NCBI GenBank assembly: GCA_002269645.1
Contig: NIVC01000441.1
Coordinates: 310,001 to 374,000, forward strand
Direction: 5' to 3'
Length of the DNA stretch: 64,000 nucleotides
Source: Macrostomum lignano
Lineage: Eukaryota
The notes below the pieces were generated by a model. The model was not told the DNA's origin, did no database searches, and was given only the letters and a program-made list of their open reading frames with translations. Positions 25,501-60,421 of the stretch are shown here, in pieces. Position 1 is the stretch's first letter. Every line of letters starts with the position of its first letter. The position numbers were made by a program, and so were the translations under genes.

Positions 25501-25505
25501 TGACG

Positions 25506-25955: not shown

Positions 25956-26228
25956 CGATCACTTCCATATATGAACTCTACTGAAATTATTGCAAACCGA
26001 AGCTGGTAATATTACCTTTACCCTAAGTGCATGTGCAATATGTACAATATTAATTTTAACCCAGCTTTGGTTCACAATCATTTCTATTTGCGTTACAAAT
26101 TTAAATTATCATTTACCTAAGCTGATATATAAGCATCATCTAACAAACCGCACTTTCAACTTTGCATATTTTTAGTTTTTTTTTAGTTTTTTGATTTGAG
26201 CATTTGAGCATAATATTTTATATGCGAG

Positions 26229-26602
26229 AGTAGTAGGTAAAACAACGCTTCTAGACCCAGAGCACTTTTTTAATAGCAGTTTTAAGGGTCTAGAGGGGGG
26301 ACACGAGGGGGTAATAAAAAAACACATCTAAACACCCTTAACACATCTAATCACCCATAATCACCCACAACACATCTAAACACATCTAATCAATAAAAAT
26401 CACCTCCAACACTCCCCCTCGTGTCCCCCCTCTGGAACCTTATAAACGGCCATTAAAAAAGGTCTGATCTAGAAGCGTACTTTTACCTACTACTACTCTA
26501 CCCAACACATCCAACACTTCCAATTCTCTATAACACTTCCAATTCTCTATAACCCCTCGCACGCGCCGCAGGCGCGAAGGGTCTTTTTCTGTTACTAAAA
26601 AT
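26229..26602 (+). repeat. Left TIR of Maverick (374 bp)
   Basis: Reverse complement of 43388-43761; no differences seen on visual comparison. Confidence 0.95.
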
Positions 26603-26915
26603 GACCAGAGTTTACACCTTTTCTGTTAGTGATACTTTTGAGACTGTTGCTAAAAATGCAGAGATAATAAAACAACATATTTTGAATGGAATAATTGATG
26701 AAGTTTATTTGAAGTATGACGACAAGCATGACCTAAAACTTTATCCATTAGAGTTGGATGAGATGTATGATTTAGAACAAGAGGGAGAGTTAATATTTCA
26801 ACTTGGAGATTATTTAAATTCGGATGATTGGGAGGTTCGTTCAGACGATTCCAACTCAACAAATAGCTCATATGAAACTAGTGATTCTGAGAATGAAATT
26901 GAAATTTTTATGTGA
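26601..26915 (+). CDS. Maverick small acidic hypothetical protein (104 aa)
   Basis: AAAAATG start context, D/E-rich ORF; no family recognised. Confidence 0.55.
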   Translation: MTRVYTFSVSDTFETVAKNAEIIKQHILNGIIDEVYLKYDDKHDLKLYPLELDEMYDLEQEGELIFQLGDYLNSDDWEVRSDDSNSTNSSYETSDSENEIEIFM

Positions 26916-26929
26916 AAAAAATATTAAAA

Positions 26930-27156
26930 AAATGAACTATTATTCTATAACAGAAACAACATTTATTATGAAAAATATATATAAAAAAATGAAGGTAAAC
27001 TACTCCTACATCGGAAATGTGCCGATTAATGAACTTAATGAAAATTTAAGTTTGATATCTGTTGAACAAATGTCAATAATTATATTAGTTACAATAATAG
27101 TAATAATATTGTTTTTGTTTGTTATAAAAAATTTACTACCATGTTGTCTCAAGTAA
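26930..27156 (+). CDS. Maverick small single-pass membrane protein (start uncertain)
   Basis: C-terminal hydrophobic stretch IIILVTIIVIILFLFVI followed by KNLLPCCLK. Confidence 0.4.
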
Positions 27157-27166
27157 TTGTTCGAAC

Positions 27167-28317
27167 TTAGTTCGCTGATATTAGTTGGTTCTCATAAAAC
27201 GAACCTAATATTTCTTCACCATCCTTATCAGCAATTATATAGGTTGTAGGATTTGTATTTAAAACTTTACTGATGGTAAATTTCTCACTTATCTTCCAAT
27301 ATCCTTTTCTTCCTTTTTCAAACTTATCTTTCCATTTATAGATATAAACAGAATCACCAACTTTAAAATCTTTAGTTTTCTTTTTTTCAAATTCTCCAAA
27401 AGTAACTTTAACGTTTTCAGGATTGTTATAAGCTTGTTGAGGAGTCATCTTTATAGCCGAATGATATGAATTATTATAATCTTTCACGACGTCTGGTAAT
27501 ATTTTTACCCACTTTTGGTTTCCATTAAGACTAAACTGAAACCACAATTTCTTACCTAAAGTTCGATTAAATCTTTCAATTAATGCATTTTTGCTTTCTC
27601 CATAAATAGAATAAATTTTATTAATATACTCCCCATTCGCGTCTTTTTTCCTTTCTTGTCCTTTTTCAAAATGATATAATTTATACATATGAGGATTGTA
27701 AAATTCTTTTCCCTCATCAACACACAAGCGTTCGCTTTTTTCATCAAGACTTCTAAAAGCAGCAGCAACCTCCTCACCTTTTTTGGATTTCAAAGGAACA
27801 GCCCACGCGTATCGAGTAAAACCATCTAGTATGGTTAAGATATATTTATATCCTCTTTCATTTGGCATCGACATTAAATCAGCATACCAAATTTCGTTCT
27901 TTTTGAAGTTCATGATTTTTCTATAAAATTTAGGTTTTCGATATTCTTTATGAAGAATCTTTGCCTCATCAGAACTTAACCCACCACCACTTAATAGCAA
28001 ACACTCAACACAATTATTTCCATGTTGGTTGTAATTAATTCCCAAACCAAATTTAACTTTAGATTGCAAGATTTTTTTAACCATCCACCGAGTTAATCTT
28101 TGGCCTACTGTTAATCCCTGTAAATTATCTAATCCTTGAATCATTTTTTGATCGGCTTCATGTTTTAATCTTAATGCTTCCTCAGGAGAATTCTTATCAG
28201 CATCTCTGTATGCTAAGTCATGATAGTATGCTAACCAATCAATGCCGTTAATGGGAATTGAATCAGCTTTTGGAGTGTCATCAGGATTTAATCGGAGATC
28301 GAGTCGAGTCAACCCGG
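27167..28317 (-). CDS. INT: Maverick rve (DDE) integrase fused to the C-terminal part of a parvovirus-like PLA2 domain
   Basis: WYADL, YILTILDGFTRYAWAVPLK, CVDEGKEF, ALIERFNRTL and a C-terminal FKVGDSV...GEEILGSFY motif. PLA2-like PINGIDWLAYYHDLAY upstream. Confidence 0.92.
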
Positions 28318-28641
28318 CCTTTTTACCTTTGCTTTCACAAAGGAGTAGACTGTGTCTTAAGCTATCATAAGGATTGACTAAGTCCCTCAAGCCCACCAGC
28401 GTACAGTCGTTGCATCTCAACCATACTCAAGTCATACGAGGTTAGGTTTTCGATTCACTCTTGTCCATATATATCTTCAAGCTTGTTACCGTTGGGAACA
28501 GGAGTTACCTGTGTTCCTTCAGAAGATTTCTCAACTGAAGTGGTACTTGAAGCTTTAGGAGATTGAGTGAGCGGCTGGTGTTGCCACTAATAGTGACTAG
28601 CAGTAGGTTTGCTTCTACCACTCGGGCACAGCTCGAGCTCC

Positions 28642-28770
28642 ACCCGTGAAATTATGAGATGGTAGGTGTAATTCATTTGTATACCTTCCAGTAGTAAAAA
28701 CGCTTGGTAAGCTTGTTAATCCTTTTTGAACATCTAAAAATCCTCCTTCAAATACTAATTGATTGCTCAT
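28642..28770 (-). CDS. N-terminal piece of the PLA2-integrase gene, separated from the rest by a 324-bp insertion
   Basis: MSNQLVFEGGFLDVQKGL...TGRYTNELHLPSHNFTG with an AAAAATG start; the expected continuation PGT-RLDLRL lies at 28317. Confidence 0.7.
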
Positions 28771-29368
28771 TTTTAATAGCCTTAAAAATACACGATAGCA
28801 CCAATTGTTTTGCAAATTCTTCAATGGTTGGTTGTTTATCATTTTTTGAAATATTATCTACAGCAACTAAGTATCTTTTATTTCTCCAATTTTCAGACTT
28901 TTTAATTTGTTCTTCATCGCGATAATCATATGAAGAAGCAGGAATAAAATGATCAACATGTAAAACACCAATATAATCTTTTGGGACATAATAACGTTTT
29001 GTGAAATTTAAACAATCAGTAAAGAATTCAATTGAGCAACCAAGGTAATCAATAGTATGATTATTTTTTCGAGTATTATTAGATTTTAGAAGAGAATTTA
29101 TTCTACATCTGGTGTTTTTTATATTTCTAAAATTTTCATCAGTTAATCTTCTTTCGTTTTCATATTTTCTGCGGCTTTCTAGATTATTTTTATCGTATTC
29201 TTTTTTCCTTTGAAGCTTATATTCACGATTTTTCTCATACCATTCTTTATCATACTTTCTCTCACAAGGTTTGCAAATACTATAATATCTATTTTGATCT
29301 CTACGAAATCTAAACTCAAACAAAAATTTCTCTTCTTTACACTTAGTACAAACCTTTTTAGTTTCCAT
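28748..29368 (-). CDS. HNH endonuclease-like protein with an N-terminal Zn ribbon
   Basis: CTKC...CKPC, then YLGCSIE...LHVDHFIP...NWRNKRYLVAVDNISKNDK, a pattern typical of large-DNA-virus and phage free-standing HNH nucleases. Confidence 0.8.
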   Translation of the reverse strand: METKKVCTKCKEEKFLFEFRFRRDQNRYYSICKPCERKYDKEWYEKNREYKLQRKKEYDKNNLESRRKYENERRLTDENFRNIKNTRCRINSLLKSNNTRKNNHTIDYLGCSIEFFTDCLNFTKRYYVPKDYIGVLHVDHFIPASSYDYRDEEQIKKSENWRNKRYLVAVDNISKNDKQPTIEEFAKQLVLSCIFKAIKNEQSISI

Positions 29369-29425
29369 TTTATAAAAAATAAATTTAACAATTAATTAAT
29401 TAAACCGAACCTTTGGTTCGCGACC

Positions 29426-30097
29426 CTACGGGGCGATTCCAGTATGTCCAGCAGCTTTCGCAGCAGCTAAAACAAGTTTTCGCGGAGTTTTAAATCCTTC
29501 TCCAACAGCCGGTTTGTTATTTATAGAATCAACAAGCCTTTTATATAAACTTGTGTTTTTAACAGCTCTTACTCCTAACTCATCATAAAAAATTTTAGCA
29601 CTTACTAATTCATCTCTAGTATATAATTCCGGGTTAAATTTTACCCTAGGGTTGGTAATAATATTAAATGCTCTACCCAATTCTCTATATAGTTCATTCC
29701 GATTTTTAACAACCTCACCAATTCGATAATTACCATCATGTAAATCTGTCACAGCAATACTAGGTGGTGCAGGTCTTGGATATTCATCAACACCACCCCT
29801 TTCTGCAGCCCTAATTTCTGCAACTCTCAATAATGCTTGATCGGCCTCATAAGTAGGCGGCTCATCCTCCTCATCTTTTGGTTCGGTATTCTTAGCAATT
29901 TTTTCCAGAAGGTCTTTATCTGTTTTTTCTAGTTCACTAATTTTCCCCGTAATAGGATTAACAAAAGGAGCAGCAAATCTTTCACCCGCTAATTGTATTC
30001 CTAACTTTCTTTTTTGTAAATTTCTAACAAAATCAGAATATCTTTGCTTCTCTTTATAAATCGCCAACTCTCCATCAACGTCCATAAATTGACTCAT
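29426..30097 (-). CDS. Maverick hypothetical protein (223 aa)
   Basis: Long ORF with an AAAAAATG start, divergent from the MCP; no family recognised with certainty. Confidence 0.7.
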   Translation of the reverse strand: MSQFMDVDGELAIYKEKQRYSDFVRNLQKRKLGIQLAGERFAAPFVNPITGKISELEKTDKDLLEKIAKNTEPKDEEDEPPTYEADQALLRVAEIRAAERGGVDEYPRPAPPSIAVTDLHDGNYRIGEVVKNRNELYRELGRAFNIITNPRVKFNPELYTRDELVSAKIFYDELGVRAVKNTSLYKRLVDSINNKPAVGEGFKTPRKLVLAAAKAAGHTGIAP

Positions 30098-30131
30098 TTT
30101 TTAACATAAAAAACTTTTTTAACATAAAAAA

Positions 30132-31604
30132 ATGGCTGAAACAAAAACTATATGGAGTGATAAATTTCATTTCAAAAAGCATCGTCAGTATATTAATGAA
30201 GTCAGAGCAAGAGATTTAAATTTTACCCTACCAACAAGTGATAATTCAAATAACTTTACTACCGGAACGGTAACTTTTGACATCGGTGCAACCAACACCA
30301 TATTGGATATGAAAAATGCGTTTTTCCGTGTTAGATGGTTGTATACTAGAAATGATGGAACTGATCTTGCAGCCGGTGATATCGCAGATCGTTCTGGAAT
30401 AATAATAGAAAATGATTGGTTTTATAAATGTTTTTCCCAAGCACAACTATCAGTTAATGGAGCCGAGGTTGAGACAGCATCAAACCCCGCAGAGATTAAT
30501 GGAGTTTTGAAACATTTAAATTATACTTATTTATCAAAACAAGTTGGTGATAATGTTGGGTGGATGCCTGATAAGGGTAATGGTCAAGCAGTAGTTTTCC
30601 CTAATGTACAAAACGCAGCTGGTGCAGATACCGCAGCTCTTATAGCTTATCTTAATACCAATATAGTTCCAGTTGTAACCACCATGACTAATACAAAAGA
30701 TATTAATACAGGTTTTATAGATCGTCAGAATAAATTCCCAGTCGCGGTTTTAACCACTGCAACCGCATATGAGCAAGACTTTTCAATCTTTCCACTATTT
30801 GGGTTCTTCTCACCAAATCGGGTATGGAAAGGATTAAAATTTGGGATACAGTTGCAAATATCTGGTGGATATCAGCCTAGGATACTTTATGGAACCTCAA
30901 TTTCAACCGATATAGCAGTTCGTATAGATTCAATTCAATTAGTCGTGCCAACTCTTGAGGTAACAGCCCCGCTTTTAAAACATGTTGATAATCAATTAAC
31001 CCATGATCAGGAAATATTTTATTTGAATCGTCGACATTTTATGCGAACCATTAATAATAATCAGGATTCATTCCAGTGGCAGATAATTACATCAAAACGT
31101 CGGGTGAGATATATTTTTGTTTGGTTTAAAATAACAAACAGAAGGAGTAAAAGAGCAAATGGGGATTTATATTGGCTTCAATCCGGTGCCATAGCAGAAC
31201 AAGCAGCCACCGCAACAGACAATGCGGCTGCAGCTATTAACGAGTTTAATGTTCAGAATATCCGCCTGCAGGTTGATGATCAATATTATCCGGTTAAAGA
31301 CCCCCTTAATCTAAACATAGCAAATAATAATGTTAATGATTTTATAAAATATTATCAAGATTATGTCAAAAATGAAGCGTATGCAGTCCCTCAGTACACA
31401 CCCACAGAGTTTCTAAACATTCATCCAGTGGTTGTTTATGATCTAACGGCACAGAAAGAAAACGTAGCCAATGTTGGACTTAATTACATGTTAGAGATTA
31501 ATAAAACCGGCAATCAGGCAATCGACGCCCACGTATTGTTTCTAGAGGAATATATGTCAATTGCTAAAGCTGATGGCACGATTGTTCGGGACGCTCCTAT
31601 TTAA
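30132..31604 (+). CDS. MCP: Major capsid protein (double jelly-roll)
   Basis: 490 aa, beta-rich. TFDI...LDMKNAFFRV...TRNDGT, FSQAQLSVNGAEVE and PLFGFF...KGLKFGIQL match the Polinton MCP pattern. Upstream of ATPase and mCP. Confidence 0.85.
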   Translation: MAETKTIWSDKFHFKKHRQYINEVRARDLNFTLPTSDNSNNFTTGTVTFDIGATNTILDMKNAFFRVRWLYTRNDGTDLAAGDIADRSGIIIENDWFYKCFSQAQLSVNGAEVETASNPAEINGVLKHLNYTYLSKQVGDNVGWMPDKGNGQAVVFPNVQNAAGADTAALIAYLNTNIVPVVTTMTNTKDINTGFIDRQNKFPVAVLTTATAYEQDFSIFPLFGFFSPNRVWKGLKFGIQLQISGGYQPRILYGTSISTDIAVRIDSIQLVVPTLEVTAPLLKHVDNQLTHDQEIFYLNRRHFMRTINNNQDSFQWQIITSKRRVRYIFVWFKITNRRSKRANGDLYWLQSGAIAEQAATATDNAAAAINEFNVQNIRLQVDDQYYPVKDPLNLNIANNNVNDFIKYYQDYVKNEAYAVPQYTPTEFLNIHPVVVYDLTAQKENVANVGLNYMLEINKTGNQAIDAHVLFLEEYMSIAKADGTIVRDAPI

Positions 31605-31619
31605 ATTATTTCTTTAAAA

Positions 31620-32378
31620 ATGGTAAAGGCAAAACACGATAAAATATTTCCAAATGATCCTTTTCTTTGTTTAGTAATCGGAGGATCAGGTAAAGGAAAA
31701 ACACACTTTGTTTACGATTTATTAACAACAGATGGAATGTTAGACTATAATAATTTAATAATTTATACTAACAAACCTAAAATAAAATATTATGAATTTC
31801 TTAAACATGGATTAAAAAACAAATTAAAAAAAGATATTATGTTTAGAATGTTAAGAGCATATGAGCAATATGAGGACGATGATGAACCAAGATTTACCCT
31901 CGATGACATTGAGGATTTATGTAAAACAACTGCAAAAGAACCGGAAAACACCACCGAGAGAGCCCCAACTGTTAGAGTACCAACCCAATTATCCTATGAT
32001 CAAATTCCAAAACATGATAAAACACTAATTATTTTTGATGATTGTATTAATGATGGTGATCAAGAATTGCAAAAGGAAATTTTTGTTAGTGGTAGAGGAG
32101 ATGGAATTGGAGCTTTTTATCTTACTCAATCCTTTAGAGATTTAGAATCGATTATAAAAAAGAATGCTAGCTGTTGTGTAATGTTTGATTTAGATAGCTA
32201 TGATTTACAAAATATACACGCTAGATTTAATCCGGGGTTGGATATAAAACCATTTAAAAGTATGTGTAAAAAAATTTGGGATGATAGTCAATACAAACAT
32301 ATTTATATCAATCCGAGGTTAGAAAGGAAACATAGAATTTTAACAAATTTGATAAAAGAAGATAACGAGGAGGAATAA
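31620..32378 (+). CDS. A32/FtsK-like genome packaging ATPase
   Basis: Walker A GGSGKGKT, Walker B LIIFDD, and GRG...FYLTQS. Confidence 0.92.
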   Translation: MVKAKHDKIFPNDPFLCLVIGGSGKGKTHFVYDLLTTDGMLDYNNLIIYTNKPKIKYYEFLKHGLKNKLKKDIMFRMLRAYEQYEDDDEPRFTLDDIEDLCKTTAKEPENTTERAPTVRVPTQLSYDQIPKHDKTLIIFDDCINDGDQELQKEIFVSGRGDGIGAFYLTQSFRDLESIIKKNASCCVMFDLDSYDLQNIHARFNPGLDIKPFKSMCKKIWDDSQYKHIYINPRLERKHRILTNLIKEDNEEE

Positions 32379-32392
32379 TTCCCACTATAAAA

Positions 32393-33178
32393 ATGGCCAC
32401 AAATTTAGACGCTATAAAACAATTGGTAGATCGAACTAATTCAAAATATAGTACAACTTTACAGTTTATAATGACAACCAGTGAACAACGTATTCAATTG
32501 CGCGATCCGTTACAACTCGATCAAAGCCTAAGTTATCAAATAGGTTTGATATTATTTTCAGTTTTTAACATGCCTCAATTAATTAATGCAACAAATAATC
32601 AATTTAGATATTCTAAAGATTCCGGAGCCAATTGGACAACATTTAGCGTTAACCCAGGAGCATATTCTTATACCGATTTAAATGCTTATATAGAAGGAGA
32701 ATTAACAGCTAATGGAGATTGGGTAGCTGGCGCGATTGTTATAGGAGTTGATTTACCATCTGGCAGATTCACGCTATCACTAGGATCCGGATATCAGGTT
32801 GATTTCACAATTGCAAATTCACTCAGAACCATACTCGGATTTAATTCCCGAATCGTTACCACATCAAGCACCGGCGATACCGTTGGAAATATTGAGGGTG
32901 GAGTTAATACAATTAATATTACAACCGACATTTCAAATGGTGGTTATATAACAGATGATAACGGAGTTTTGGTTCAACGTGGAATTATTTATTCAATCCC
33001 ATTTCTTGCTGTTCCAATTGGAGAGAAAATGATTGTGTCACCCCAAACCCCAATATATTATCCTTTAAATCAATATAGTGTTCAATCAATTTATATTAGG
33101 ATTGTAGATGAAAGCGATAGATTAATAAGTTTTGGTGGGCAATCAATAACGGTAATTTTACGGATAAAACAGGTTTAA
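32393..33178 (+). CDS. mCP: Minor capsid protein (penton, single jelly-roll)
   Basis: LQLDQSLSYQIGL...INATNNQFRYSKDSGANW...PGAYSY pattern, and position in the morphogenesis module. Confidence 0.8.
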   Translation: MATNLDAIKQLVDRTNSKYSTTLQFIMTTSEQRIQLRDPLQLDQSLSYQIGLILFSVFNMPQLINATNNQFRYSKDSGANWTTFSVNPGAYSYTDLNAYIEGELTANGDWVAGAIVIGVDLPSGRFTLSLGSGYQVDFTIANSLRTILGFNSRIVTTSSTGDTVGNIEGGVNTINITTDISNGGYITDDNGVLVQRGIIYSIPFLAVPIGEKMIVSPQTPIYYPLNQYSVQSIYIRIVDESDRLISFGGQSITVILRIKQV

Positions 33179-33188
33179 AACTGTAAAA

Positions 33189-33365
33189 ATGGGTAACCAT
33201 TCTGGAGCGTTAAAAAAACAATCAGATAAAGTTCAAAACGCAAAGGAATATTATGAAATCGAATTAACAAAATTGAAACAATTACAGGCAGAAAAAATCC
33301 GAAAGGAACTGTTAAAATCTAAACCTACGAAACTAACTAAAACCAAGAGTTTTTCAGGAACATAA
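33189..33365 (+). CDS. 58-aa basic protein, absent from the ORF track
   Basis: TAAAAATG start; MGNHSGALKK...KTKSFSGT*; fills the gap between mCP and the protease exactly. Confidence 0.5.
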   Translation: MGNHSGALKKQSDKVQNAKEYYEIELTKLKQLQAEKIRKELLKSKPTKLTKTKSFSGT

Positions 33366-33366
33366 A

Positions 33367-33843
33367 ATGACTATGAATTGGAGTGGACGGACGGAGTCCT
33401 CCCCCTCACTAACGTGGGGTGGGTTCAAACAAAGATATGGAACAGACACAACAAGCAATATCGAATTAACAAATTGGGCGCGGCAATTAAAAATAAAACC
33501 ATTCAGATGTGTTATGCGAGATGAGATCAAAGACTTACCACAATATGGATCTTACATTGTCAATATAGAAACAACAAAAGAAAACGGTGTTCATTGGTCG
33601 GCAGTTTATTCCAAACCCAAACTTGTTTATTTTTTTGATTCATACGCGCTTCCTCCGTTACAGGAAATAAAAGACAAATTTAATCATACTAAAAATCGTT
33701 TATGTGGAGATCATCATGAACAATTTCAAACCTTTGATAAAAGTTATTGCGGGCAAGCGGCGTTGTATTTTTTATATAAAATTAATAACTCTAAGGAAAG
33801 AACCGAAGACTTTAAAGATATCATGCGAAGCATGCGAACCTAA
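33367..33843 (+). CDS. PRO: Adenain-like cysteine maturation protease
   Basis: Catalytic H (GVHW), D (FFDSY), Q and C (QTFDKSYCG). Confidence 0.9.
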   Translation: MTMNWSGRTESSPSLTWGGFKQRYGTDTTSNIELTNWARQLKIKPFRCVMRDEIKDLPQYGSYIVNIETTKENGVHWSAVYSKPKLVYFFDSYALPPLQEIKDKFNHTKNRLCGDHHEQFQTFDKSYCGQAALYFLYKINNSKERTEDFKDIMRSMRT

Positions 33844-33910
33844 AGTTCGATCGGACGAAGTCCGCGACCCTACGGGGCGATTTTAGATTCTATAAAATAG
33901 ACAGTAAAAA

Positions 33911-35784
33911 ATGATATTTTCTGGAACGCCCTCATGGAACGGAACAACAAGTACTGGTGGTGGTACATCTGGTGGAATAAGTGTTACATTCGGAGATAAC
34001 CGATATATTAATGAAGATGAAGGTTATAAAAAACTGAAATTGATAATAAACTAAATTTAAAAAAAAATGTTGCAGATTCCTATACCAAAACTGAAATCGA
34101 TACTTCATTAAATTTGAAAAGAGATATTAGTGATTCATATACAAAAACTCAAATAGATGATTCATTAAATTTAAAAAGAGATATAACCGATTCTTATTCT
34201 CGAACTGATTCTGATTCGCGTTATGTTCAAACCACCGCAACCGGAACCTTAGATATGGACAACAATCGAATTATAAATGTTGCAATTACAACGAATAACT
34301 CAGTAGTTGATAAGAACTATGTCGATAATCAGGTTGGTAGTCGTACTGGCAATATCAATATGAATAATTTTAAATTAACAAATTTATTATTTGGAACAGA
34401 GGCCACAGACTCGGTCAATTTAGGACAAGTCAACGCTCGAGCTAATGTAACCGACGCCGATATTTTTTCCACGCCGCTTACATCAAATACTTCAAATCCA
34501 GATGTTGTTCTTACAGCATCCGAAAATACCAACGATGCTTTTCGAGTTGGAGATGGAAGCCTTGCGACACAATGGTCACCAAATACCGGAACCACAACCA
34601 ATATGGAAATTCAATTTGAATTTTTAGGTTATAATCGAAGAATAAATGAATTAAGAATTACAGGCAGCGCAACAATTGATATTCCATCGGGATGGTCGGT
34701 TCGTGCAAAAAATGTTGCTACCGATGCATGGACGGTATTACGAACGTCGGGATCACCAATTCAAGCAACTTCATTTGCGTTAACTAATTTAACGGTTAAT
34801 TTTTGGAAATATTATAGCGTTTTATTCCCAACTGGTGGCACCGCTACACAGCCTATCGAGGTTCGTCTAATACAATTATTTGAACACCGAGTTGAAATTC
34901 AAGATCTTAATTGGCCAAATGAAATACTATCTGCAACCCCGCGAGTGTACGTAGATCAGGTAGCTACCCCAATATCAAATGGCAGAATGTCTGCCGGTGA
35001 TAAAAATAAATTGGATAATATTCCCGCCATTGATGCCGCATTATTCGAGCCAGTAATTTGTAATTGGACTGGATATCAAAATCCAACAACCGCCGGAGAT
35101 ATATATCCAGTTGGTTCTTTAATTGGCGACGCTTCTTATATCGATTATCAAAATGGTGCTAGAATTACTCGTGAAACTGGTGGTGTCAGTGGGGCATTAC
35201 AATTTAATTTCACACATTTTCAAAATATATCAGCGTCTTTCTTTTTCAGAGTTGCCAATTCTGGAGGAACTGGTGCAGATGCGGTTTGGTTTTATGCATA
35301 TTGTCACGAACGACCAACAAGCGAAAGCGGGACGGGTTTAGCAACAGACGCCGGATTGATAGTTTTTGCAAGTGAGTGGCATGATAAATTTGGCCTAGTT
35401 TGGAGTTCTAAAAAATCAGACGGATCAAGCCGCGCGGATGTTAATACTGACGCGGATCAAACGGTAGACTATACAAATATTGATAGCGGTGATTGGCATC
35501 TGTTTGAAATTAATATTTTAAATCAAAGGGTTTGGTATAGAATACATTCATACAATGTCTCAGCCGATTCTTATACCCTCATTGGGCAGAACGTTTTCAC
35601 ATATGATAGTGGAAATTGGGGAACTTTAGATAAATCTGGAACTCTTATGGGTTTTGGTGCTCGAACTGGAGGAGCAGATGCTGCACATTTTATTCGTGGC
35701 GCTGCTGTTTGTGGTAGCACATCATTTGGTTATGTTTATCCATCTACTGCTTATTTGGAAAAACCTCCTGTTGCTATAACTTAA
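33911..35784 (+). CDS. Fiber/spike-like protein with a 1-nt frameshift near 34030; putative discoidin-like and L-type lectin-like domains
   Basis: N-terminal SYTKTEID repeats continue upstream of the listed ORF; DMDNNRIINV, KNYVD and VYVD shaft-like motifs; DGSLATQWS...IRVLIQ-type (VRLIQLF) region; GADAVWF...GFGARTGG...H region. Confidence 0.7.
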
Positions 35785-35799
35785 ATATTTATATATAAA

Positions 35800-36126
35800 A
35801 TGGCTTTTAGTAGAACTCCATCGATGCGACAAAATAATGTTATCATTCCAATTCCTAAACAAGAATCAAATATAAAAACTTTTAAATCTCATACGCGAAT
35901 TTTATTTAGTGGAGTGAATGTTCAGGATAATAAGAAACTTCAAGAATTAATTAAATTATTAAAAAATCATATTATACTTCAAGAGTTTTGGAAAATTGGA
36001 TTTAAATGGGAGAAAAAAGAAAGAATAACTCCAATACAATACCTATTGAGCTCAGGACAAATCCCCAAAGAGCGCGGGGAATTCATTTTAGTGCTATTAA
36101 AAATAGACGAGAATGTCGGTGTCTGA
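35800..36126 (+). CDS. Maverick hypothetical protein (108 aa)
   Basis: TAAAATG start, in a tightly packed gene series. Confidence 0.55.
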   Translation: MAFSRTPSMRQNNVIIPIPKQESNIKTFKSHTRILFSGVNVQDNKKLQELIKLLKNHIILQEFWKIGFKWEKKERITPIQYLLSSGQIPKERGEFILVLLKIDENVGV

Positions 36127-36769
36127 AGCAGATAAAAGGGAACGTGACCATTTTAACCAACGTAAAGGTCACATGTTAAGTAATGTTGATCGTATTAACT
36201 ATGATTATGATTTATATGCTAAAAAAGTAAGAAGAGTTTCAAACCATATCAGAAATATAGATTTTTTCAATATTGGTTTTGGAAGCTTATCAATGTTATG
36301 TGTAATCGTTTTAGGTACTTTACAATCTATTCCAACTCTTAATTTATCTCAATTATTTTTAGGTATTGCAATTGGCTCAATATCAGGTTTTGAATTAATT
36401 AGAAATTTATCAATACTTTTAGCAATTAAATTATATCTTAAAAAAAGAAAGGAAAAATATAAATCATTAAGAGATGTTGCCAAGCAATATAAAAATCAGT
36501 TATATTTATATGTGCAAAAAATATTGGATGACGGAGAGATAACAATTCACGAGTTATCAACCGCGGTTGAATTATATGAAAAATATTTAAAAGATCGAAA
36601 TAGAATTTTAGATGTTGAAACTTTTACCGATATAGAATTAAAAGAATTACGTTTGGACAAACCCAAAGCTCCTCCGATAGATACATTAGGTATTTACGAA
36701 CCTGAAACTGTTGGTACTGGGGTACAAAGCCCGCGAACCGGTAGTGCGGTAGAACTTAATGTTGTTTAG
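36113..36769 (+). CDS. Maverick protein with two predicted transmembrane helices
   Basis: Hydrophobic FFNIGFGSLSMLCVIVLG and LFLGIAIGSISGFELI segments; C-terminal KILDDGEIT...YEKY motif that I recall from Polinton membrane proteins (not verified). Confidence 0.65.
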   Translation: MSVSEADKRERDHFNQRKGHMLSNVDRINYDYDLYAKKVRRVSNHIRNIDFFNIGFGSLSMLCVIVLGTLQSIPTLNLSQLFLGIAIGSISGFELIRNLSILLAIKLYLKKRKEKYKSLRDVAKQYKNQLYLYVQKILDDGEITIHELSTAVELYEKYLKDRNRILDVETFTDIELKELRLDKPKAPPIDTLGIYEPETVGTGVQSPRTGSAVELNVV

Positions 36770-37249
36770 TTTTTCTAACGCATACGTTATGTATTCTTCC
36801 CAAAGTGGTAATTCTCTTTTAATTCTAGGTTTAAATTTTTTATCAATACATAAAAATTCCAATGACTTTTTCAGTAACATTTCGTTAGGTATGTTACCTA
36901 TCCTTATAAACTTTGTATTCTCTCGCATAAGAAAATTAAAATAATATCCAACTAAAATTAAAATCCTTTCGGAGTCTTTCGAACTTAATCCCTTTCCTTT
37001 ATTTAAATGGAAAAAGTTGTTATATAAATAAACATTATTTCCGGGAATTAAAATTGGATCAGATATGTCTCTTGTAAGATTTCTTAAAATTGTGTTTTTA
37101 AAATAGTAATATGAGTTTTCAATCTTTTTTGTTTTTTCAAATTGATATATTTTAGAACATGAATAGCACATATGATATATATCTCCGCTTGTTGTTTGAG
37201 CTCTATGCATAGTCACATTACATTTTTTACATACATAAATGTCTTTCAT
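36686..37249 (-). CDS. Zn-ribbon hypothetical protein (187 aa)
   Basis: CKKC...CYSC at the N-terminus; A-rich start context. Confidence 0.55.
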   Translation of the reverse strand: MKDIYVCKKCNVTMHRAQTTSGDIYHMCYSCSKIYQFEKTKKIENSYYYFKNTILRNLTRDISDPILIPGNNVYLYNNFFHLNKGKGLSSKDSERILILVGYYFNFLMRENTKFIRIGNIPNEMLLKKSLEFLCIDKKFKPRIKRELPLWEEYITYALEKLNNIKFYRTTGSRALYPSTNSFRFVNT

Positions 37250-37276
37250 TTTTTTGTTATTTTTTTAGATTAAAAA

Positions 37277-37609
37277 ATGGAGAGCTGGTTCAAAACCGAT
37301 TCTAATGTGATTAATTATCTCACACCCAATATGTTGGAGAATAAAGAATATAATATTGTATGTTTGAGACAGGTTAAATTTATTGGACTTCAATCGATAT
37401 TTTTACAATTAGATGGTCAAACAATACTATGTTTAAGTGGGAATGATGTTAAAAATTTTCCAGTTTTAGTTATTAATAAACCTAAAGCGTTCATTATAAA
37501 ATACAGTCTGGAGGGTGGATTGCAATTTAAACTAAAACAAACAAATAATAAAAAGAGTGATAGGACTGTAAAATTGGCATCAGTTTGGGAGGCTGACGAA
37601 GATTGTTAA
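37277..37609 (+). CDS. Maverick hypothetical protein (110 aa)
   Basis: TAAAAAATG start, divergent from the 187-aa ORF. Confidence 0.55.
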   Translation: MESWFKTDSNVINYLTPNMLENKEYNIVCLRQVKFIGLQSIFLQLDGQTILCLSGNDVKNFPVLVINKPKAFIIKYSLEGGLQFKLKQTNNKKSDRTVKLASVWEADEDC

Positions 37610-37625
37610 ATTTTTTTATAAGAAA

Positions 37626-37970
37626 ATGGACGAGCAAAAAATCCTTATCGCTAAACATCGTGAAATTAATGATATTAATAAAAAAATAAATTCAATGTCT
37701 TATAGTGAGTGGGAGGACGATATGTTTCCCATTCGATATGAGTTGGATAAAAGAAAGTATTTTTTATATAAAGATATTGCTTATGCTGAAATAGTAATTG
37801 AAATTGAAATAGCTAGATTGGTTAGACGAATAAAAAAACTTAGGATAAAAATAAAAGAATGTTTAAGTTATCCTGACGACTGCGAGGAAAATTGGCCTTC
37901 AATAATATATGAAATTGAAGTTGATGATATGCTTAAACAATTACATGCTTTAGTTTTTTACCATTATTAG
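37626..37970 (+). CDS. Maverick hypothetical charged/coiled-coil protein (114 aa)
   Basis: ORF convergent with the pPolB 3' end. Confidence 0.5.
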   Translation: MDEQKILIAKHREINDINKKINSMSYSEWEDDMFPIRYELDKRKYFLYKDIAYAEIVIEIEIARLVRRIKKLRIKIKECLSYPDDCEENWPSIIYEIEVDDMLKQLHALVFYHY

Positions 37971-40900
37971 TTTTTCTGTTAATCTCTTCCAGTTATCCAA
38001 GACTTTTTCCTTGTTTAATTTTTTAAGTTCTTTTGGAAAAGTTGCATAATAATTATCTATATCTTTTTTATATTCTAGAAATGTATTATATTCACATTCA
38101 CATTCGGATTCACAATAACAATCGTAATAATAATTATTTATTGCCTCTTTGTATTCATTATATTTGCTTATTATATCTTCTTTTTGTTTTTTATCTTTTA
38201 TCATATTTTTTATCTCTTCTTTTAAACCATATGGATATGTTTTAATTTTATCATCTAAATATCTTTTATCATCAAATGGACTTAATGTTTTTTTATCTGT
38301 CTCGATGACAAACATCTGATGCTTATCTGAATTTAATCGATATTGTGGAGCATAATAATTTTCAATTGTATTAAGGTAATCTAAAAGTACGTTTTTATAA
38401 TCATCAAATGTTATCTTTTTAACTGCTGCCCTTGATACCCCTTTTATTTTTTTTACCTCTCCCTCCTGTCCTAAAACTTTAAATGCATAGCATTTTGATC
38501 TTATTGCTATAAACTCGGTTATGATTTTGCTATTTAATTCATCTTTCATTTTAAGTACAACTTTCTTATTTTGATTCGATTTTAAGGGATGGTTATCCGG
38601 ATAGTCGGATGTATCCAATGTATCTTTAATTTTTTCCATATCTTTATAGACATCGAACCTTTGGTTCGCGGGCTTTGCCCGGTCATCTGTTTCAACCTTA
38701 AATACCAAACTGTCGGTGTCCGCATATATTGGATAGTTATCTGGCCATGTTTTATTTATAACATCATAATAGTATTCATACATTACTAGCTTTGCAAAAT
38801 CTAGAACAACCATTCCAATAAATATTGGTTTAAGAAATTTTGTTGTTTTATTTCTCATATGTATTCCCATAAAGTTATCATCAAATTTTATAAAATCTTT
38901 AAAGTTAGGTTTTGAGAAATATTTCTTTGCTTTATCAATATCCTTTTCTAAATGGAATTGGGTTCTATCTCTAATATTTTCAACCGTTTTTCCATAAAAA
39001 GCATTATTCATTAATTTCCAATAATCTTTCTCAAAATTTGTTTTTGACATCTGTCTCTGATTTGAATTAAAATCAATATATTTAGCTAACCAATCTTCCT
39101 CAATAAACGATATTGTTCGATGTACTTTAGACACTTTTAATCCCTGCTTTTCATAAAATTGTAGAAGCTTATAATGCACTACATAGTTTTTCTTATCATG
39201 TAAATTTAATATTAATTTTTTTGTTGCTAGGTGTTTTGCATTATCTGCTTTAAGATAATCTTTTTGTGTTTGTGATAAATCATCTTCATTAACTGAACAA
39301 TGCTCTGGAGCTAAAGGATATTTATATGTTTTTGCTTTTGCTTCCCGAGTATATTGCAAATCCACTTCTACGATACAACCCCTTCCTTCGGGAATATTTT
39401 TGTAATAATCGGGGTCGTCTTCCCATTGGAAATCAGCTATTGGTAATTTTTGTTTCATACAACCACCGTATAAATTGTTTGCATCTAGATATAATACATA
39501 TGATGATTTTTCTTTTTTATTATAATTTGGTAGATATTTATTATTTACTTTAGTATATCTATCTCCTAGTACCCCCGAGAATCCGCCGCGAATTCCTCTC
39601 TCAATCATTAACAACATATCATGATCAGTTAATAAATCAATCTCAACATCTGTGTATTTCAAACCGCAAGCCCATGTTAATCCGGGTGCACTAAAACAAT
39701 AAGCGGGATCAATTTTAAAATTCTCATAAGTATGATTCCTAAAGTTTTCAAATGCATCAGCTAATAGGAGAACATCTGCTTTAAGATATAGATTATGATA
39801 ATCTTTAAATGTTTTACAATTAAAATATTTCCATACTTTTTGAGCATGTTCATAATCCGATTCACTTATATTTGTTTGTGATAATGTTGAATAAAACTTT
39901 TCTATGGGTGGTAATTCGGTATGAAAAAATACGTCTTCAGATGTTACATATTCATATGGATACATGCCCTTACGAGTTAATAGTATTAGTTCTTCCTCGG
40001 ATAGTTTTTCCTTTTTGAAATGATTCAATAGTATTGGAAAGTTTTTCTTTACTATTTCTAAATCCCATGGTTTTGGAACTAATGATGAAACAACATTTGC
40101 TAAAGATGTTGATAAGAATCTCAAGGAATCTAGAAAAACTAGATGGGAGTATTTCTTACCATATGTTATTGATATGTAATTTTCTGATGTTTTAGGTAAT
40201 ATATTTATTTCATATTCATCCTTTCCTAAATGAAGCAATTCTCGAACTAGGAAATGAAAATCATATCCGGAACCATTATGAAAAAATACTGGTATTTCCT
40301 TACATCCTTTTCCTTCTTTTGCATTACATGATCTACATGCTGCCCCTCGATAAATTCCCGTTAGATGACAATGTTCTCGTATCTTATTTTTCTTACTTAA
40401 ATATCTTTTGCATATATAACAATTTGTTGCATTTTTATAATTGTTTCTATCCTTATCTGTCATAATAATATTTTTTGATAATTTATCATATTGATTTTGA
40501 ATATATTCAAATACATTTACTAATGATTCTGCCATGTGCTTAGCTGCATCCTTACCGTGGTAAGTAATCATCCTTGATTTAAATATATTATCAGCTACGG
40601 AGTGTACATATATACAATAACTATTCGGAAACTGTTGTGCCAATTTTTTTGTGCATTCACCATCATCAGATACTGTCTGTGGTTCTTTTAAGGGAACATT
40701 TGTTGCTTCAAAATCAGCATATATTACTATTGGTTTTTTAATTGCAATATAATGTTGTTGGAACATTAGGGTTGCATCTTCAGATGCTGGCATTACAACA
40801 TTAGTAAATTTGTGATCTAAACAAAATCGTTGATGATTTTTAAGAGCTGTTTCATCATATTTAAATGTGAAACAGTTTCTACATAATGGCTTTCTATTTC

Positions 40901-41909
40901 CATTTTCTCTTAAAAAGGAACTAATGTCCTTTATGTATATATAATGTGTTTCATTTTCACGCTGCATGTACAAAAGGTCGATTTGATCTGGTGCTGTTAT
41001 ATCAGTTGCTGGTTTTACTAAATAACAGTTTTTCTTATACCATTCTGGATCGGTTGAAATTTCTTCTAGATCTTCTGGTTCTTCAATTGTAAACACATTA
41101 ATATTTAAACCATTCATTTTTTCAATCTTATATATATCATCTATTGCTACTGGATATGATATGTTTTTCATTATTATTTCATCCTCATATTGTCTATAAT
41201 TATATATTTTATTAATGTGTGATTCTACTTGATTGTGATATTTATGAATTAATAAACACCATAATAAACATTTATTATCTTTATTGTCTGGATTTATAAT
41301 CATTGGTGATTTAAATTTGAGATTCATATGTGATCGTCCTTTAAGAATTTCAATAGGAACAATCTTTACTATTGCTGAATTACAGGATACAAATATAAAC
41401 CCGGATCCGTTTTCTGTCATCCTATCTATCCATTCATCAAACTCCGCTTCTATTTGATTAAATTGATTATTGTAGTTTCTCATTGATAGTAGTGTTTTAT
41501 ATGATTCTTGTGAAAAGTTATTTATTACTTCAATTTCTGAATTTGCATTAAGAATATTTGGTTTTTTAAATTCTGTTTCAACTTCTATTTTATACTTAAT
41601 TGGCTGTCGTTTGTTATTTGGCCTTATAGTATAATTGTTTAATATGGTCTTTAATTTATCTTTCATTTGTTTAAAATATTCTTTATAATTTGTATTTATA
41701 TCTATATCTATATATATTACTTCAGCTCCATTTTGTCCTTGTGGTTGGGGGTTATCAATATCATTTAATTGTCTTTCTAAACGTATCTCATTTTCTGCCC
41801 TAACTCTAGCTTCTATTTCAGCCCTATCGGCAATTCGTTGTGCATCGATTTGAGCTATTAATTGCGCTCTAAGTTCGGGGTTGTCGATTTGAGCTAAAAT
41901 TGATTCCAT
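37950..41909 (-). CDS. pPolB: Protein-primed family B DNA polymerase (1319 aa) with an endonuclease VII-like Zn insert and an N-terminal terminal-protein-like region
   Basis: Exo I YADFEA, Exo II FHNGSGYDFH, Exo III YLKADV; Pol YLDANNLYG, KLMNNAFYGK, YADTDS; insert CYIC...EHCHLTGIYRGAACRSCN. Confidence 0.97.
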   Translation of the reverse strand: MESILAQIDNPELRAQLIAQIDAQRIADRAEIEARVRAENEIRLERQLNDIDNPQPQGQNGAEVIYIDIDINTNYKEYFKQMKDKLKTILNNYTIRPNNKRQPIKYKIEVETEFKKPNILNANSEIEVINNFSQESYKTLLSMRNYNNQFNQIEAEFDEWIDRMTENGSGFIFVSCNSAIVKIVPIEILKGRSHMNLKFKSPMIINPDNKDNKCLLWCLLIHKYHNQVESHINKIYNYRQYEDEIIMKNISYPVAIDDIYKIEKMNGLNINVFTIEEPEDLEEISTDPEWYKKNCYLVKPATDITAPDQIDLLYMQRENETHYIYIKDISSFLRENGNRKPLCRNCFTFKYDETALKNHQRFCLDHKFTNVVMPASEDATLMFQQHYIAIKKPIVIYADFEATNVPLKEPQTVSDDGECTKKLAQQFPNSYCIYVHSVADNIFKSRMITYHGKDAAKHMAESLVNVFEYIQNQYDKLSKNIIMTDKDRNNYKNATNCYICKRYLSKKNKIREHCHLTGIYRGAACRSCNAKEGKGCKEIPVFFHNGSGYDFHFLVRELLHLGKDEYEINILPKTSENYISITYGKKYSHLVFLDSLRFLSTSLANVVSSLVPKPWDLEIVKKNFPILLNHFKKEKLSEEELILLTRKGMYPYEYVTSEDVFFHTELPPIEKFYSTLSQTNISESDYEHAQKVWKYFNCKTFKDYHNLYLKADVLLLADAFENFRNHTYENFKIDPAYCFSAPGLTWACGLKYTDVEIDLLTDHDMLLMIERGIRGGFSGVLGDRYTKVNNKYLPNYNKKEKSSYVLYLDANNLYGGCMKQKLPIADFQWEDDPDYYKNIPEGRGCIVEVDLQYTREAKAKTYKYPLAPEHCSVNEDDLSQTQKDYLKADNAKHLATKKLILNLHDKKNYVVHYKLLQFYEKQGLKVSKVHRTISFIEEDWLAKYIDFNSNQRQMSKTNFEKDYWKLMNNAFYGKTVENIRDRTQFHLEKDIDKAKKYFSKPNFKDFIKFDDNFMGIHMRNKTTKFLKPIFIGMVVLDFAKLVMYEYYYDVINKTWPDNYPIYADTDSLVFKVETDDRAKPANQRFDVYKDMEKIKDTLDTSDYPDNHPLKSNQNKKVVLKMKDELNSKIITEFIAIRSKCYAFKVLGQEGEVKKIKGVSRAAVKKITFDDYKNVLLDYLNTIENYYAPQYRLNSDKHQMFVIETDKKTLSPFDDKRYLDDKIKTYPYGLKEEIKNMIKDKKQKEDIISKYNEYKEAINNYYYDCYCESECECEYNTFLEYKKDIDNYYATFPKELKKLNKEKVLDNWKRLTEKLIMVKN

Positions 41910-41993
41910 TTTATAGAATAGAATTTATATAATGTTTGAATTATTGATTTTTTAATTTTGTGTTTTTGGTGTCCAGACCCACCCCCCAGGAGC

Positions 41994-42968
41994 CTATTCG
42001 AGATCTGCTTTTGGTAATAGCAATCCATTGCCCATAACGTTTGAATTTAAGAAAATTCCTGAACCTGCTTTTGGTCGCATTTCGAGATATAATCCGCTTC
42101 CGTCGTGTTTTTCAATGATATTAAAATCTTTTCCTAATTTATTAAAAATTTTCTGAACAGCTGGTCTAAAATTGGATCCAATATTGTCAAAAAATCCTTT
42201 AGCTTTCTCACCCGTTTTTTCTAAAGTTTGGCCAAATTCATGTAGTTTATCTGCGACAACTCCACTTCCTTGGGTTGTTCCTTTTAGTACCAAACCGTTG
42301 CCATTTAACAGTAAACCTTTTCCGGCTGCTAACCTAGCTTCTGCATTTCTTTTTTGCTCTGCTGTTGCTGAACTACTATTAATGGTATCAATAAGTTTCT
42401 GTTTGAATTGTGCGTCCTGTGTTATTTGCTGTCTTTGAAATTCTGCATCTCGTTTAGCTTTTTCATCCGCAGCTTTTTTATCATTTACTGCTTTTGTGAT
42501 TCCAGCTGCGCCCCCTGCTATTCCACCAGCTGCTCCTATTCCTGCAAAAATTATTGGTAATAAAGTTGCTAATGGCAATATTCCTCCTTGTTTTGCTTTT
42601 AATTCTGCTAACTGTTTTCGGTTATCATGAATTCTTTTACCTGCTAAACCGGCTGCTCCGGCTGCTCCGAGGCCTAAAAGAATTGGTAAAATAGGTAACA
42701 ATCCACCGTCTTTTTTAGTGTGAGTCTCCAATAAAAATTTTACATCGGAGTCTGTCAACCTATAATTTCTACCATGATTCTTAAAGGATATTGGCCTTCC
42801 TTCTTGTGCATATTTTGCAGCAAGTTTAAATGTATCGATATCGTAGTCAAGTTTTTTACCTAAACGATCCAATCTTTTTAACATTGTGTGACTATGTTTA
42901 TTATCGTCTAGATTTAAAGTATCTACAATTTCTCCTATAAAATATAAGCGGTCGTTATCTGTGTCCAT
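41994..42968 (-). CDS. Putative virion core or membrane-active protein with GGxLP hydrophobic segments and repeated GxGL motifs
   Basis: GGLLPILPILLGLGAAG, GGILPLATLLPIIFAGIGAAGGIAGG, and GKGLLL/GSGLYL/GNGLLL. Confidence 0.65.
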   Translation of the reverse strand: MDTDNDRLYFIGEIVDTLNLDDNKHSHTMLKRLDRLGKKLDYDIDTFKLAAKYAQEGRPISFKNHGRNYRLTDSDVKFLLETHTKKDGGLLPILPILLGLGAAGAAGLAGKRIHDNRKQLAELKAKQGGILPLATLLPIIFAGIGAAGGIAGGAAGITKAVNDKKAADEKAKRDAEFQRQQITQDAQFKQKLIDTINSSSATAEQKRNAEARLAAGKGLLLNGNGLVLKGTTQGSGVVADKLHEFGQTLEKTGEKAKGFFDNIGSNFRPAVQKIFNKLGKDFNIIEKHDGSGLYLEMRPKAGSGIFLNSNVMGNGLLLPKADLE

Positions 42969-42978
42969 TTTTATATTG

Positions 42979-43377
42979 TTAAAATTTTTTTAATCCTTTT
43001 CCGCCTTTAATTGTGGTTAACATTTTATTAAAATCCTGAATATCTTTATTACTTATTGGCGCGCTTTTCGTGGGGGTTTCTGTTGGTTGTGCGGCTTGTG
43101 CCAGCTTTAAATCTTTTATTGCATTTATTTGTGAGAGGGTGTCGTTAAAATCTCTCAATTTCTTTAGTTCTTCTGCTGCTCTAGCTGCTTCAATTCCTCC
43201 TTTTACAGCATTTGTTATAGAACCTGCTGCGGAGCCTGCTTGCCCTATTAGACCCATATTGTCTTTAACAAAATTCGCTGCTGTTCCAACCACATCAAAA
43301 AGCCCCTCACCTCGGTATTCAATTGGGTCTCCTACCTGCAATTCGTTCAGATTTTGCATATGAGTAACGTGTGTCAT
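42979..43377 (-). CDS. Maverick small Gly/Ala-rich protein (132 aa)
   Basis: GEGLFDVV...amphipathic helix...GGKGLKKF; A-rich start next to the right TIR. Confidence 0.6.
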   Translation of the reverse strand: MTHVTHMQNLNELQVGDPIEYRGEGLFDVVGTAANFVKDNMGLIGQAGSAAGSITNAVKGGIEAARAAEELKKLRDFNDTLSQINAIKDLKLAQAAQPTETPTKSAPISNKDIQDFNKMLTTIKGGKGLKKF

Positions 43378-43387
43378 TTTTTGTTCT

Positions 43388-43761
43388 ATTTTTAGTAACA
43401 GAAAAAGACCCTTCGCGCCTGCGGCGCGTGCGAGGGGTTATAGAGAATTGGAAGTGTTATAGAGAATTGGAAGTGTTGGATGTGTTGGGTAGAGTAGTAG
43501 TAGGTAAAAGTACGCTTCTAGATCAGACCTTTTTTAATGGCCGTTTATAAGGTTCCAGAGGGGGGACACGAGGGGGAGTGTTGGAGGTGATTTTTATTGA
43601 TTAGATGTGTTTAGATGTGTTGTGGGTGATTATGGGTGATTAGATGTGTTAAGGGTGTTTAGATGTGTTTTTTTATTACCCCCTCGTGTCCCCCCTCTAG
43701 ACCCTTAAAACTGCTATTAAAAAAGTGCTCTGGGTCTAGAAGCGTTGTTTTACCTACTACT
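43388..43761 (-). repeat. Right TIR of Maverick (374 bp)
   Basis: Reverse complement of 26229-26602. Confidence 0.95.
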
Positions 43762-44450
43762 TGCGAGCAACAGTGTAATATCATCCGAACTCGAGCTCAT
43801 ACATGTACCAATCTCTCAACAGATCGCAAAAACCTATCTTACTTACTGGCTAAAAATCAGACACAAAAAACTCTGTCCAACAACACTTGATATTTTTCAC
43901 TCAAATACCAGCCAAAATAACCCTTGGGTGACAAATGTTCATAAAGAAACTGAAAAGTATAGACCTCGAGACACTATACAAAGATAAAACCCCCCAATTA
44001 AGTTTTAACAATGAGAAACTTCTAGTGAAAAAGCAACTGCACATGTATAGAGAAAGAGAACTAAGCGGAAAGCTAGACAACCAGCACCATACTAAATATT
44101 ACAAAAGCGCTTACTTATTCAAAAAAACCTGCAGACCTGTCCTCTCAAATTACTTTCCAAGTCTACTTAGAAACAAAAAATACCTAACGACCCTTCTGAA
44201 ACTGAACTGTGAACTCATGCACAAGGCATTCTCTCAGGAAGCTTGTGGACTCTGTGGAGCAAGAAATGGAGCCGATATTCTCCACTACCTAAGTGAGTGC
44301 CCACAAACACTAGAAATTAGGAAAAAATACTTCTCTCAATACCTTCTAGATGCCACACACATGCATAAAATAGGGTATGCCACAAATGAAAAAAGAATCA
44401 GAAAAGAGCTCTCCGGAGTAGCCACAATTTACGATGTCATGTACAGCTAA
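43762..44450 (+). mobile_element. 5'-truncated non-LTR retrotransposon (LINE) ORF2 3' end, frameshifted
   Basis: SELELIHVPI...YLTYWLKI, then C-terminal CCHC-like CGLC...ILHYLSECP...IRKKY; two overlapping ORF fragments. Confidence 0.6.
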
Positions 44451-60381: not shown

Positions 60382-60421
60382 AGCGCCTGAAACTACATGA
60401 ATTGCTGCCCCAACCCGCCAG

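Follow-up and report, generated by a model that had tools for sequence, protein, structure and literature searches.

A predicted group I intron with a neighbouring HNH endonuclease gene in a recent Polinton/Maverick copy of Macrostomum lignano

The window, a 64,000-nucleotide stretch of Macrostomum lignano DNA (contig NIVC01000441.1 of assembly GCA_002269645.1, positions 310,001 to 374,000 of the forward strand), contains a Polinton/Maverick element that spans positions 26229-43761 of the stretch, with 17,533 bp between its target-site duplications (TSDs). We regard it as likely that this is a recent copy in which the gene for a PLA2-integrase fusion (PLA2-INT) harbours a self-removing intron, that the intron and an HNH endonuclease gene beside it came from a nucleocytovirus-type donor, and that this particular copy is probably defective. 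The Polinton itself is of a known kind, and the unusual part is the intact giant-virus-type ribozyme intron together with the neighbouring endonuclease. A preliminary description of the same DNA had listed the insert in PLA2-INT as a lesion. Judged from its sequence and predicted structure, the insert (28318-28641) is a structurally complete group I intron and not an insertion lesion; since it was taken for damage, the most unusual feature of the element was missed. The features that bear directly on this are the following.

26223..26228: left TSD, TGCGAG
26229..26602, plus strand: left terminal inverted repeat (TIR), 374 bp, first bases AGTAGT
27167..28317, minus strand: exon 2 of PLA2-INT, with the remaining parvovirus-type PLA2 domain and the rve integrase
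28318..28641, minus strand: predicted group I intron, 324 nt, no internal open reading frame (ORF)
28642..28770, minus strand: exon 1 of PLA2-INT, 43 codons, start in AAAAATG context; homologues P0316 and P0318
28748..29368, minus strand: free-standing HNH/EndoVII-type endonuclease, 206 aa, candidate homing endonuclease (phrog_1035, E 5.3e-13)
43388..43761, minus strand: right TIR, same sequence as the left
43762..43767: right TSD, TGCGAG

Identity of the insert in PLA2-INT

A covariance model (R1) built from 26 IMG/VR viral introns, from which the window was excluded, scored the insert at 152.7 bits (E 6e-46) across all 283 positions. The 26 introns are the aligned members of a set of 35 non-redundant ones, nine longer or odd introns having been left out, and the motifs that flank P7 retrieved at least 122 viral stretches. 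By nhmmer, the insert matched the viral intron of locus L039 (E 2e-24). The structure covaries among the 26 model introns, with 94.9% of cells paired, a value that none of 500 shuffles reached, and the insert itself folds better than all 100 of its shuffles (z -2.8). The predicted helices comprise P1, P2, P2.1, P3, P4, P5abc, P6, P7, P8 and P9, and pairing in the catalytic core is complete (P3 7/7, P4 6/6, P6 3/3, P7 5/5). In P1, positions 28646-28642 pair with 28627-28623, and a U.G pair at 28642/28627 marks the 5' splice site. What we take to be the strongest sign of selection on the intron structure comes from P4, where five pairs that are invariant in all 26 viral introns are swapped on both sides in the window with pairing kept; a pattern search for the swapped P4 returned no viral contigs. 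Such a wholesale compensatory swap amounts to a natural experiment on a ribozyme core.

Some observations weigh against this assignment. All 79 modelled intron pairs are formed, a count that is biased by the placing of the helices by hand, and Rfam returned no match for the window intron, even at E<=1, nor did it detect the related intron of L001, the Polinton-like contig described below. That Rfam misses the window intron is probably due to the changes in P4 and part of P3. The gathering score of the Rfam family RF00028 is a library threshold rather than a defining biochemical trait, and it was reached in 7 of 20 tested relative loci, two of the seven belonging to the model set. Across L005-L126, RF00028 was without a match in 13 of the 20 tested loci. 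As far as these sequences go, the giant-virus-associated intron family is probably under-annotated, and because Rfam misses the intron, similar inserts in Polintons may be miscalled as lesions and intact elements undercounted.

Other identities for the insert were considered and rejected. A solo long terminal repeat or a TSD-flanked transposon is contradicted by the 5-nt end repeat, which would give a pre-insertion PLA2 with a stop codon, and by the covariance model score, and a spliceosomal intron by the lack of a branch or pyrimidine tract and by the full group I core.

Splice sites, reading-frame breaks and age of the copy

The 5' splice site, fixed by P1, lies after 28642 at the end of the 43-codon exon 1. 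The candidate terminal G of the 3' site is at 28318, with alternatives at 28319, 28313 and 28310. G28318 gives full P9.0 pairing and a boundary that agrees with that of the L001 intron, and the guide-sequence duplex energies are alike for the four candidate sites (-9.2 to -10.8 kcal/mol). Several findings count against an intact gene spliced at this position: the P9.0 rule fits 12 of 49 introns, compared to 8.05 in shuffles (105 of 2000 shuffles were as high), a 3' site at 28318 puts exon 2 out of frame, and G28319, G28313 and G28310, which keep the frame, alter a three-residue spacer that is kept in 44 of 44 matching homologues. Because 28318 is out of frame and the in-frame sites change the conserved spacer, we read the first ~10 bases of exon 2 as the probable place of a further small break in the frame, distinct from the intron. 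Of 53 insertion or deletion differences, 12 are listed, and none of these alters the length where exon 2 begins. Likewise, no joint that skips the intron occurred among the 15 contig joints listed of 66, the contigs being uninformative on absence.

The fiber gene starts at 33911 in an A-rich context, and its frame breaks in an A run near 34027-34033. The contigs of all four sequencing runs differ in length at this run; since the length differs in other copies, the family as a whole does not share the break, which may be an assembly slip. Programmed frameshifting was set aside as an explanation, as the A run is not in the canonical slippery register (judged by eye) and its length varies among copies. 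The preliminary description had seen only two lesions, of which the fiber frameshift is real in the sequence, whereas the insert in PLA2-INT is an intron and the break in exon 2 was probably missed. With exon 2 out of frame and the fiber gene broken, this copy is probably defective as sequenced, and both breaks may be young mutations or assembly slips.

The size of the element, its 374-bp TIRs and its 6-bp TSD lie within the Polinton/Maverick range (13-25 kb; 100-1500 bp; 5-8 bp). The TIRs (26229-26602 and 43388-43761) are complementary at 374 of 374 positions, and the absence of any difference in the pair bounds their divergence at below 0.8% at 95%; the insertion is therefore young. The earlier claims of identical TIRs, an intact 6-bp TSD (TGCGAG at 26223-26228 and 43762-43767) and a young element are thus borne out, and the appreciable TIR divergence that would have spoken against youth is absent. 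Young Polintons with open genes are already described in parts of the literature (10.1101/2023.08.22.554363, PMC8502044, PMC11161782).

Parts of the element's stretch are held by 20 sequencing runs from seven studies, all under one organism label. The best run shares 0.48 of the words of the stretch, which corresponds to ~2.3% per-site difference if evenly spread. In run X1, the 9280 contig records on 25700-43387, a depth that is not equal to copy number, comprised 3124 that were at least 99% alike, 2976 at 95-99%, 2503 at 90-95% and 677 below 90%. These data support the view that a Polinton belonging to a diverse multi-copy family inserted here recently. In a tool-chosen subset of 40 of the 1384 differences, 38 were coding, 23 of them synonymous, including all five in the gene for the major capsid protein (MCP); at the sequence level, the coding differences among copies fit purifying selection. 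Three runs guessed to be RNA, none of them on record as such, had contigs in 30, 30 and 29 of 30 bins, which says nothing on transcription.

The state of the gene can be read in other ways. An inert insertion that inactivates PLA2-INT, the earlier view, would accord with the blank Rfam result and with the stop that the unspliced frame meets inside the insert, but this identity is refuted by the covariance model score and further opposed by the nhmmer match, the paired helices and the same-site intron in L001, which makes it very improbable. Another account, to which we give a rather low probability, holds that the intron is real by descent and no longer splices usefully, with the PLA2 half dead family-wide and the integrase made alone from a Met at 28144. 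This Met lies in the same A-rich start context as other genes, exon 2 is out of frame behind the best 3' site, and the break may be common to other copies, given that the indels listed include none where exon 2 begins. Those listed are 12 of 53, however, and short contigs may clip indels; exon 1 is open with a proper start, and all modelled helices pair, with compensatory changes at invariant pairs that a dead intron would soon lose. A fully functional copy is slightly easier to accept, though still unlikely. It would use a shifted 3' site at G28319 or G28313, both of which are in frame and similar to the others in duplex energy, and its fiber break would be a homopolymer assembly error, in line with the differing lengths of the A run in contigs of the four runs. 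Against this, P9.0 pairing is best at 28318, where the boundary agrees with that of L001, the alternatives disturb the conserved spacer, and the four runs lack this exact copy (best word share 0.48) and are thereby unable to test the assembly.

Origin of the intron and its endonuclease

The same PLA2 Gly|Pro codon boundary is interrupted by a 302-nt intron (179 bits) in L001, a Polinton-like contig whose ORFs include an ATPase, an MCP-like and a protease-like one and whose integrase is 35% identical to the window's. The site is uninterrupted in 64 of 65 informative metagenome loci, the exception, L164, being the same sequence as L001. The junction was examined in 66 of 80 metagenome loci, of which 55 were uninterrupted by a motif test and nine by eye, one begins beyond the site and the last is L164. 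The site is also empty in the closest homologues, P0001 and P0316. P0318 is uninterrupted, and in P0003, which shares its 90% cluster, the N-terminal part as far as that Pro is foreign, which also holds for P0026 and others. A second P7-like motif pair at ~936-1060 of L001, without an R1 score, is probably due to chance.

Identity between the intron of the window and that of L001 is 64.5%, and the two were grouped 91/91 among viral introns; the window intron, with a branch length of 0.52, is ~70% identical to those of L039, L011, L080 and L007. The ORF of the HNH/EndoVII-type endonuclease ends 106 nt upstream of the 5' splice site. Its family occurs within 2.5 kb of the same intron type in 14 of 80 viral loci (L005 and L006 overlap) and in none of 84 loci with INT. 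In L007 (1616-3366, minus strand), a viral ubiquitin-like gene is split by the same intron type, with the window's HNH family directly behind it. L001 carries a GIY-YIG gene upstream of PLA2-INT, where the window has HNH, and in the 36 intron-less loci with enough flank no endonuclease was found upstream of PLA2-INT when up to four of the longest ORFs there were taken per locus, of which 110 out of 121 were scanned. An ORF-less intron that adjoins a free-standing endonuclease gene is the layout of collaborative homing by free-standing endonucleases, as given in part of PMC3984707. Taken with the viral loci, the position of the HNH gene beside the intron suggests homing from a giant virus. A giant-virus origin is weakened by several features of the data: the node that unites the window and L001 introns is unstarred, with a long branch leading to each, giant-virus names of metagenome-assembled genomes are carried by only 20 of the 80 listed intron loci, and the association with an endonuclease is seen in two intron-bearing Polintons only, many of the control loci being near-duplicates.

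In the established biology of the family, pPolB would copy the linear genome from the TIRs, the rve integrase would insert it and thereby duplicate 6 bp, and the building of particles would fall to MCP, penton, ATPase and protease. The intron would excise itself from the mRNA by a guanosine-started two-step reaction, in which the U.G pair of P1 would mark the 5' site after 28642, and P9.0 with the terminal G the 3' site at 28318. At the family level it would be a tolerated passenger and not a lesion. A nucleocytovirus-type donor would have supplied the lineage with both the intron and the HNH gene next to it, whose enzyme would spread the intron by cutting intron-less alleles in collaborative homing. 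This suggests that the lineage of the element once shared cells with giant viruses.

A bolder extension, which we hold only tentatively and consider doubtful, is that the animal Polinton is a present or recent virophage-like parasite of nucleocytoviruses, took the giant-virus ribozyme and homing endonuclease in a shared factory, and keeps a working intron in many bilaterian nuclear copies. About equally open to doubt is the opposite account, in which intron and HNH gene have come down vertically, as ancient cargo, from a Polinton-like ancestor in a protist, so that the element would be an autonomous nuclear one with no contact with giant viruses implied. Group I introns are reported in protist Polinton-like viruses (PLVs; PMC12220804), and the long branch of the window intron (0.52), together with its grouping with the intron of L001 and that contig's 35% identical integrase, would suit such an ancestry. 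The site is, however, empty in 64 of 65 informative loci and in P0001 and P0316, a patchiness that recent gain or homing would explain more readily than an ancient intron lost very many times. Acquisition from a nucleocytovirus-type donor is preferred here.

Compared to known systems, the element resembles animal Polintons/Mavericks (adintoviruses, Polintoviricetes) in its 17.5-kb length, TIRs, 6-bp TSD, pPolB, rve integrase, double jelly-roll MCP, ATPase, penton-like and protease-like ORFs and parvovirus-type PLA2, the defining features of the group as given in parts of 10.1101/2023.08.22.554363, PMC8502044 and 10.64898/2026.06.19.733378. It differs from them in that its PLA2 is fused to the integrase and not to pX as in PLA2X, in that a group I intron interrupts this gene and an HNH gene lies next to it, and in that each TIR starts with a ~266-nt fold-back. 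Nor is it an alpha adintovirus with PLA2X, as the pX-like match lies on a separate ORF and PF03175 is not matched. The intron shares its core, P5abc extension, P2.1, P8 and P9 with the group I introns of giant viruses and protist PLVs, whereas its P4 and part of P3 are compensatorily replaced, and its host gene is a PLA2-integrase in a full Maverick-type Polinton in an apparent animal chromosome. Unlike phage collaborative homing, the window case involves a eukaryotic integrating virus, and cleavage by its HNH enzyme is putative.

In Paulinella, Desmodesmus and Rhodomonas, PLVs have RF00028 introns that are 309-376 bp long (PMC12220804), and in a 2025 survey of the NT database the group I introns listed for animals are confined to placozoans, corals and sponges and are mostly mitochondrial (PMC11835236). 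Maverick-Polintons are almost always found in animals, according to part of 10.64898/2026.06.19.733378. PMC11296320 and 10.64898/2026.10.13.758929 mention self-splicing introns in their discussions only. No group I intron in an animal Polinton was found in open-licence PMC and bioRxiv texts, a search that did not cover supplementary intron tables (e.g. those of PMC12220804 and PMC11835236), which could list animal cases. If the assignment is true, the window holds a group I ribozyme in an animal nuclear genome, where it interrupts a protein-coding gene. Animal Polintons may live autonomously in the nucleus or may need large DNA viruses, and a giant-virus-type intron with its endonuclease in a Polinton would be a traceable mark of shared infection that points to a helper to seek.

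Gene content and surroundings of the element

Apart from PLA2-INT and the HNH gene, the following ORFs were delineated within the element, ~13 ORFs in all lying beyond the named genes.

26601..26915, plus strand: accessory ORF, 104 aa, no family
26824..27156, plus strand: accessory ORF, hydrophobic C-terminus, no family
29426..30097, minus strand: accessory ORF, 223 aa, no family
30132..31604, plus strand: double jelly-roll MCP, 490 aa
31620..32378, plus strand: A32-like packaging ATPase, 252 aa (PF04665 above cut-off)
32393..33178, plus strand: probable minor capsid (penton) protein, 261 aa; homologues in 28 of 84 INT loci
33189..33365, plus strand: small basic ORF
33367..33843, plus strand: probable maturation cysteine protease, 158 aa; His, Asp, Gln, Cys motif by eye; homologues in 31 of 84 INT loci
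33911..35784, plus strand: fiber-like gene, weak tail-fiber match, frameshift in the A run near 34027-34033
35800..36126, plus strand: accessory ORF, no family
36113..36769, plus strand: accessory ORF, no family
36686..37249, minus strand: accessory ORF, no family
37277..37609, plus strand: accessory ORF, no family
37626..37970, plus strand: accessory ORF, no family
37950..41909, minus strand: family-B DNA polymerase of the protein-primed type (pPolB), 1319 aa, EndoVII domain at residues ~491-543
41994..42968, minus strand: 324-aa ORF, weak adenovirus pX-like match (PF05829, E 1.4e-4, below cut-off)
42979..43377, minus strand: accessory ORF, 132 aa

The preliminary description had all replication and morphogenesis genes present. 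This stands for pPolB, MCP, ATPase and the integrase core, whereas the penton and protease can only be called penton-like and protease-like, neither matching a named family. In the 1319-aa frame of pPolB, the Exo and Pol A/B/C motifs were located. The polymerase is 35% identical over 1123 aa to that of the INT-bearing locus L002, and it matched neither PF03175 nor, by sequence, any PDB entry. The integrase core falls just under the cut-off for rve (PF00665, E 2.7e-07, 31.2 bits against 32.6); 357 homologues were found, the majority of them annotated with PF00665, and a single-protein search of viral contigs with INT gave no match. For the MCP, 33 of 43 aligned sequences match PF21738 (double jelly-roll), and an AlphaFold model (pLDDT 84.8) matches the mavirus MCP (E 8e-16), an earlier model from four sequences (pLDDT 50.8) not being used; only three homologues exceed 40% identity. 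In Polinton-like loci, the penton-like and protease-like ORFs recur together with INT as conserved genes, with the counts given above. The nearest Atlas clusters of the penton-like ORF are viral, and one homologue of the protease ORF matches Peptidase_C5 weakly (E 0.019), a PDB sequence search with the ORF itself being blank.

The trinucleotide AAA precedes 18 of 21 ORF starts (26601-43377), compared to 47 of 615 ATGs overall. Either a poxvirus-like late promoter motif, such as a virophage-like virus would share with its helper, or an A-rich context for host translation would fit equally well. Small GC-rich hairpin modules were seen at 29399-29438, 33817-33881, 33369-33424, 38654-38681 and near 31594, one of them in frame within pPolB. 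A 19-nt motif of these modules repeats at 29420 and 33864, in the opposite sense to the local gene, and several modules are absent or replaced in other copies, like tiny mobile palindromes.

The outer ~266 nt of each TIR (26229-26494 and 43496-43761) form a long imperfect hairpin from the terminal base (DNA fold z -14.7), in which 73 of the first 95 nt are paired. An Rfam scan of 26000-44000 gave only chance miRNA matches on this hairpin. By analogy, the fold-back is reminiscent of hairpin telomeres, though the element is protein-primed.

The Polinton is AT-rich (GC ~0.27-0.37), and on its left side lies a GC-richer Gypsy remnant, a fragmented Ty3/Gypsy pol (reverse transcriptase and RNase H; 22497-25510, minus strand) that ends ~700 bp from the element. 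The top identity of its reverse transcriptase is 58%, to a Macrostomum lignano protein that is the sole eukaryote-named match among the 120 listed. Beside this remnant, GC-rich ORFs at 20571-22351 (minus strand) encode TatD DNase (E 1e-07) and DnaJ (E 8e-17) domains and are possibly cargo of another mobile element. Further out, at 1700-14000, 17140-18500 and 53400-64000, the window is occupied by long satellite DNA with 74/77-bp units and by many minisatellites with units of 20-120 bp.

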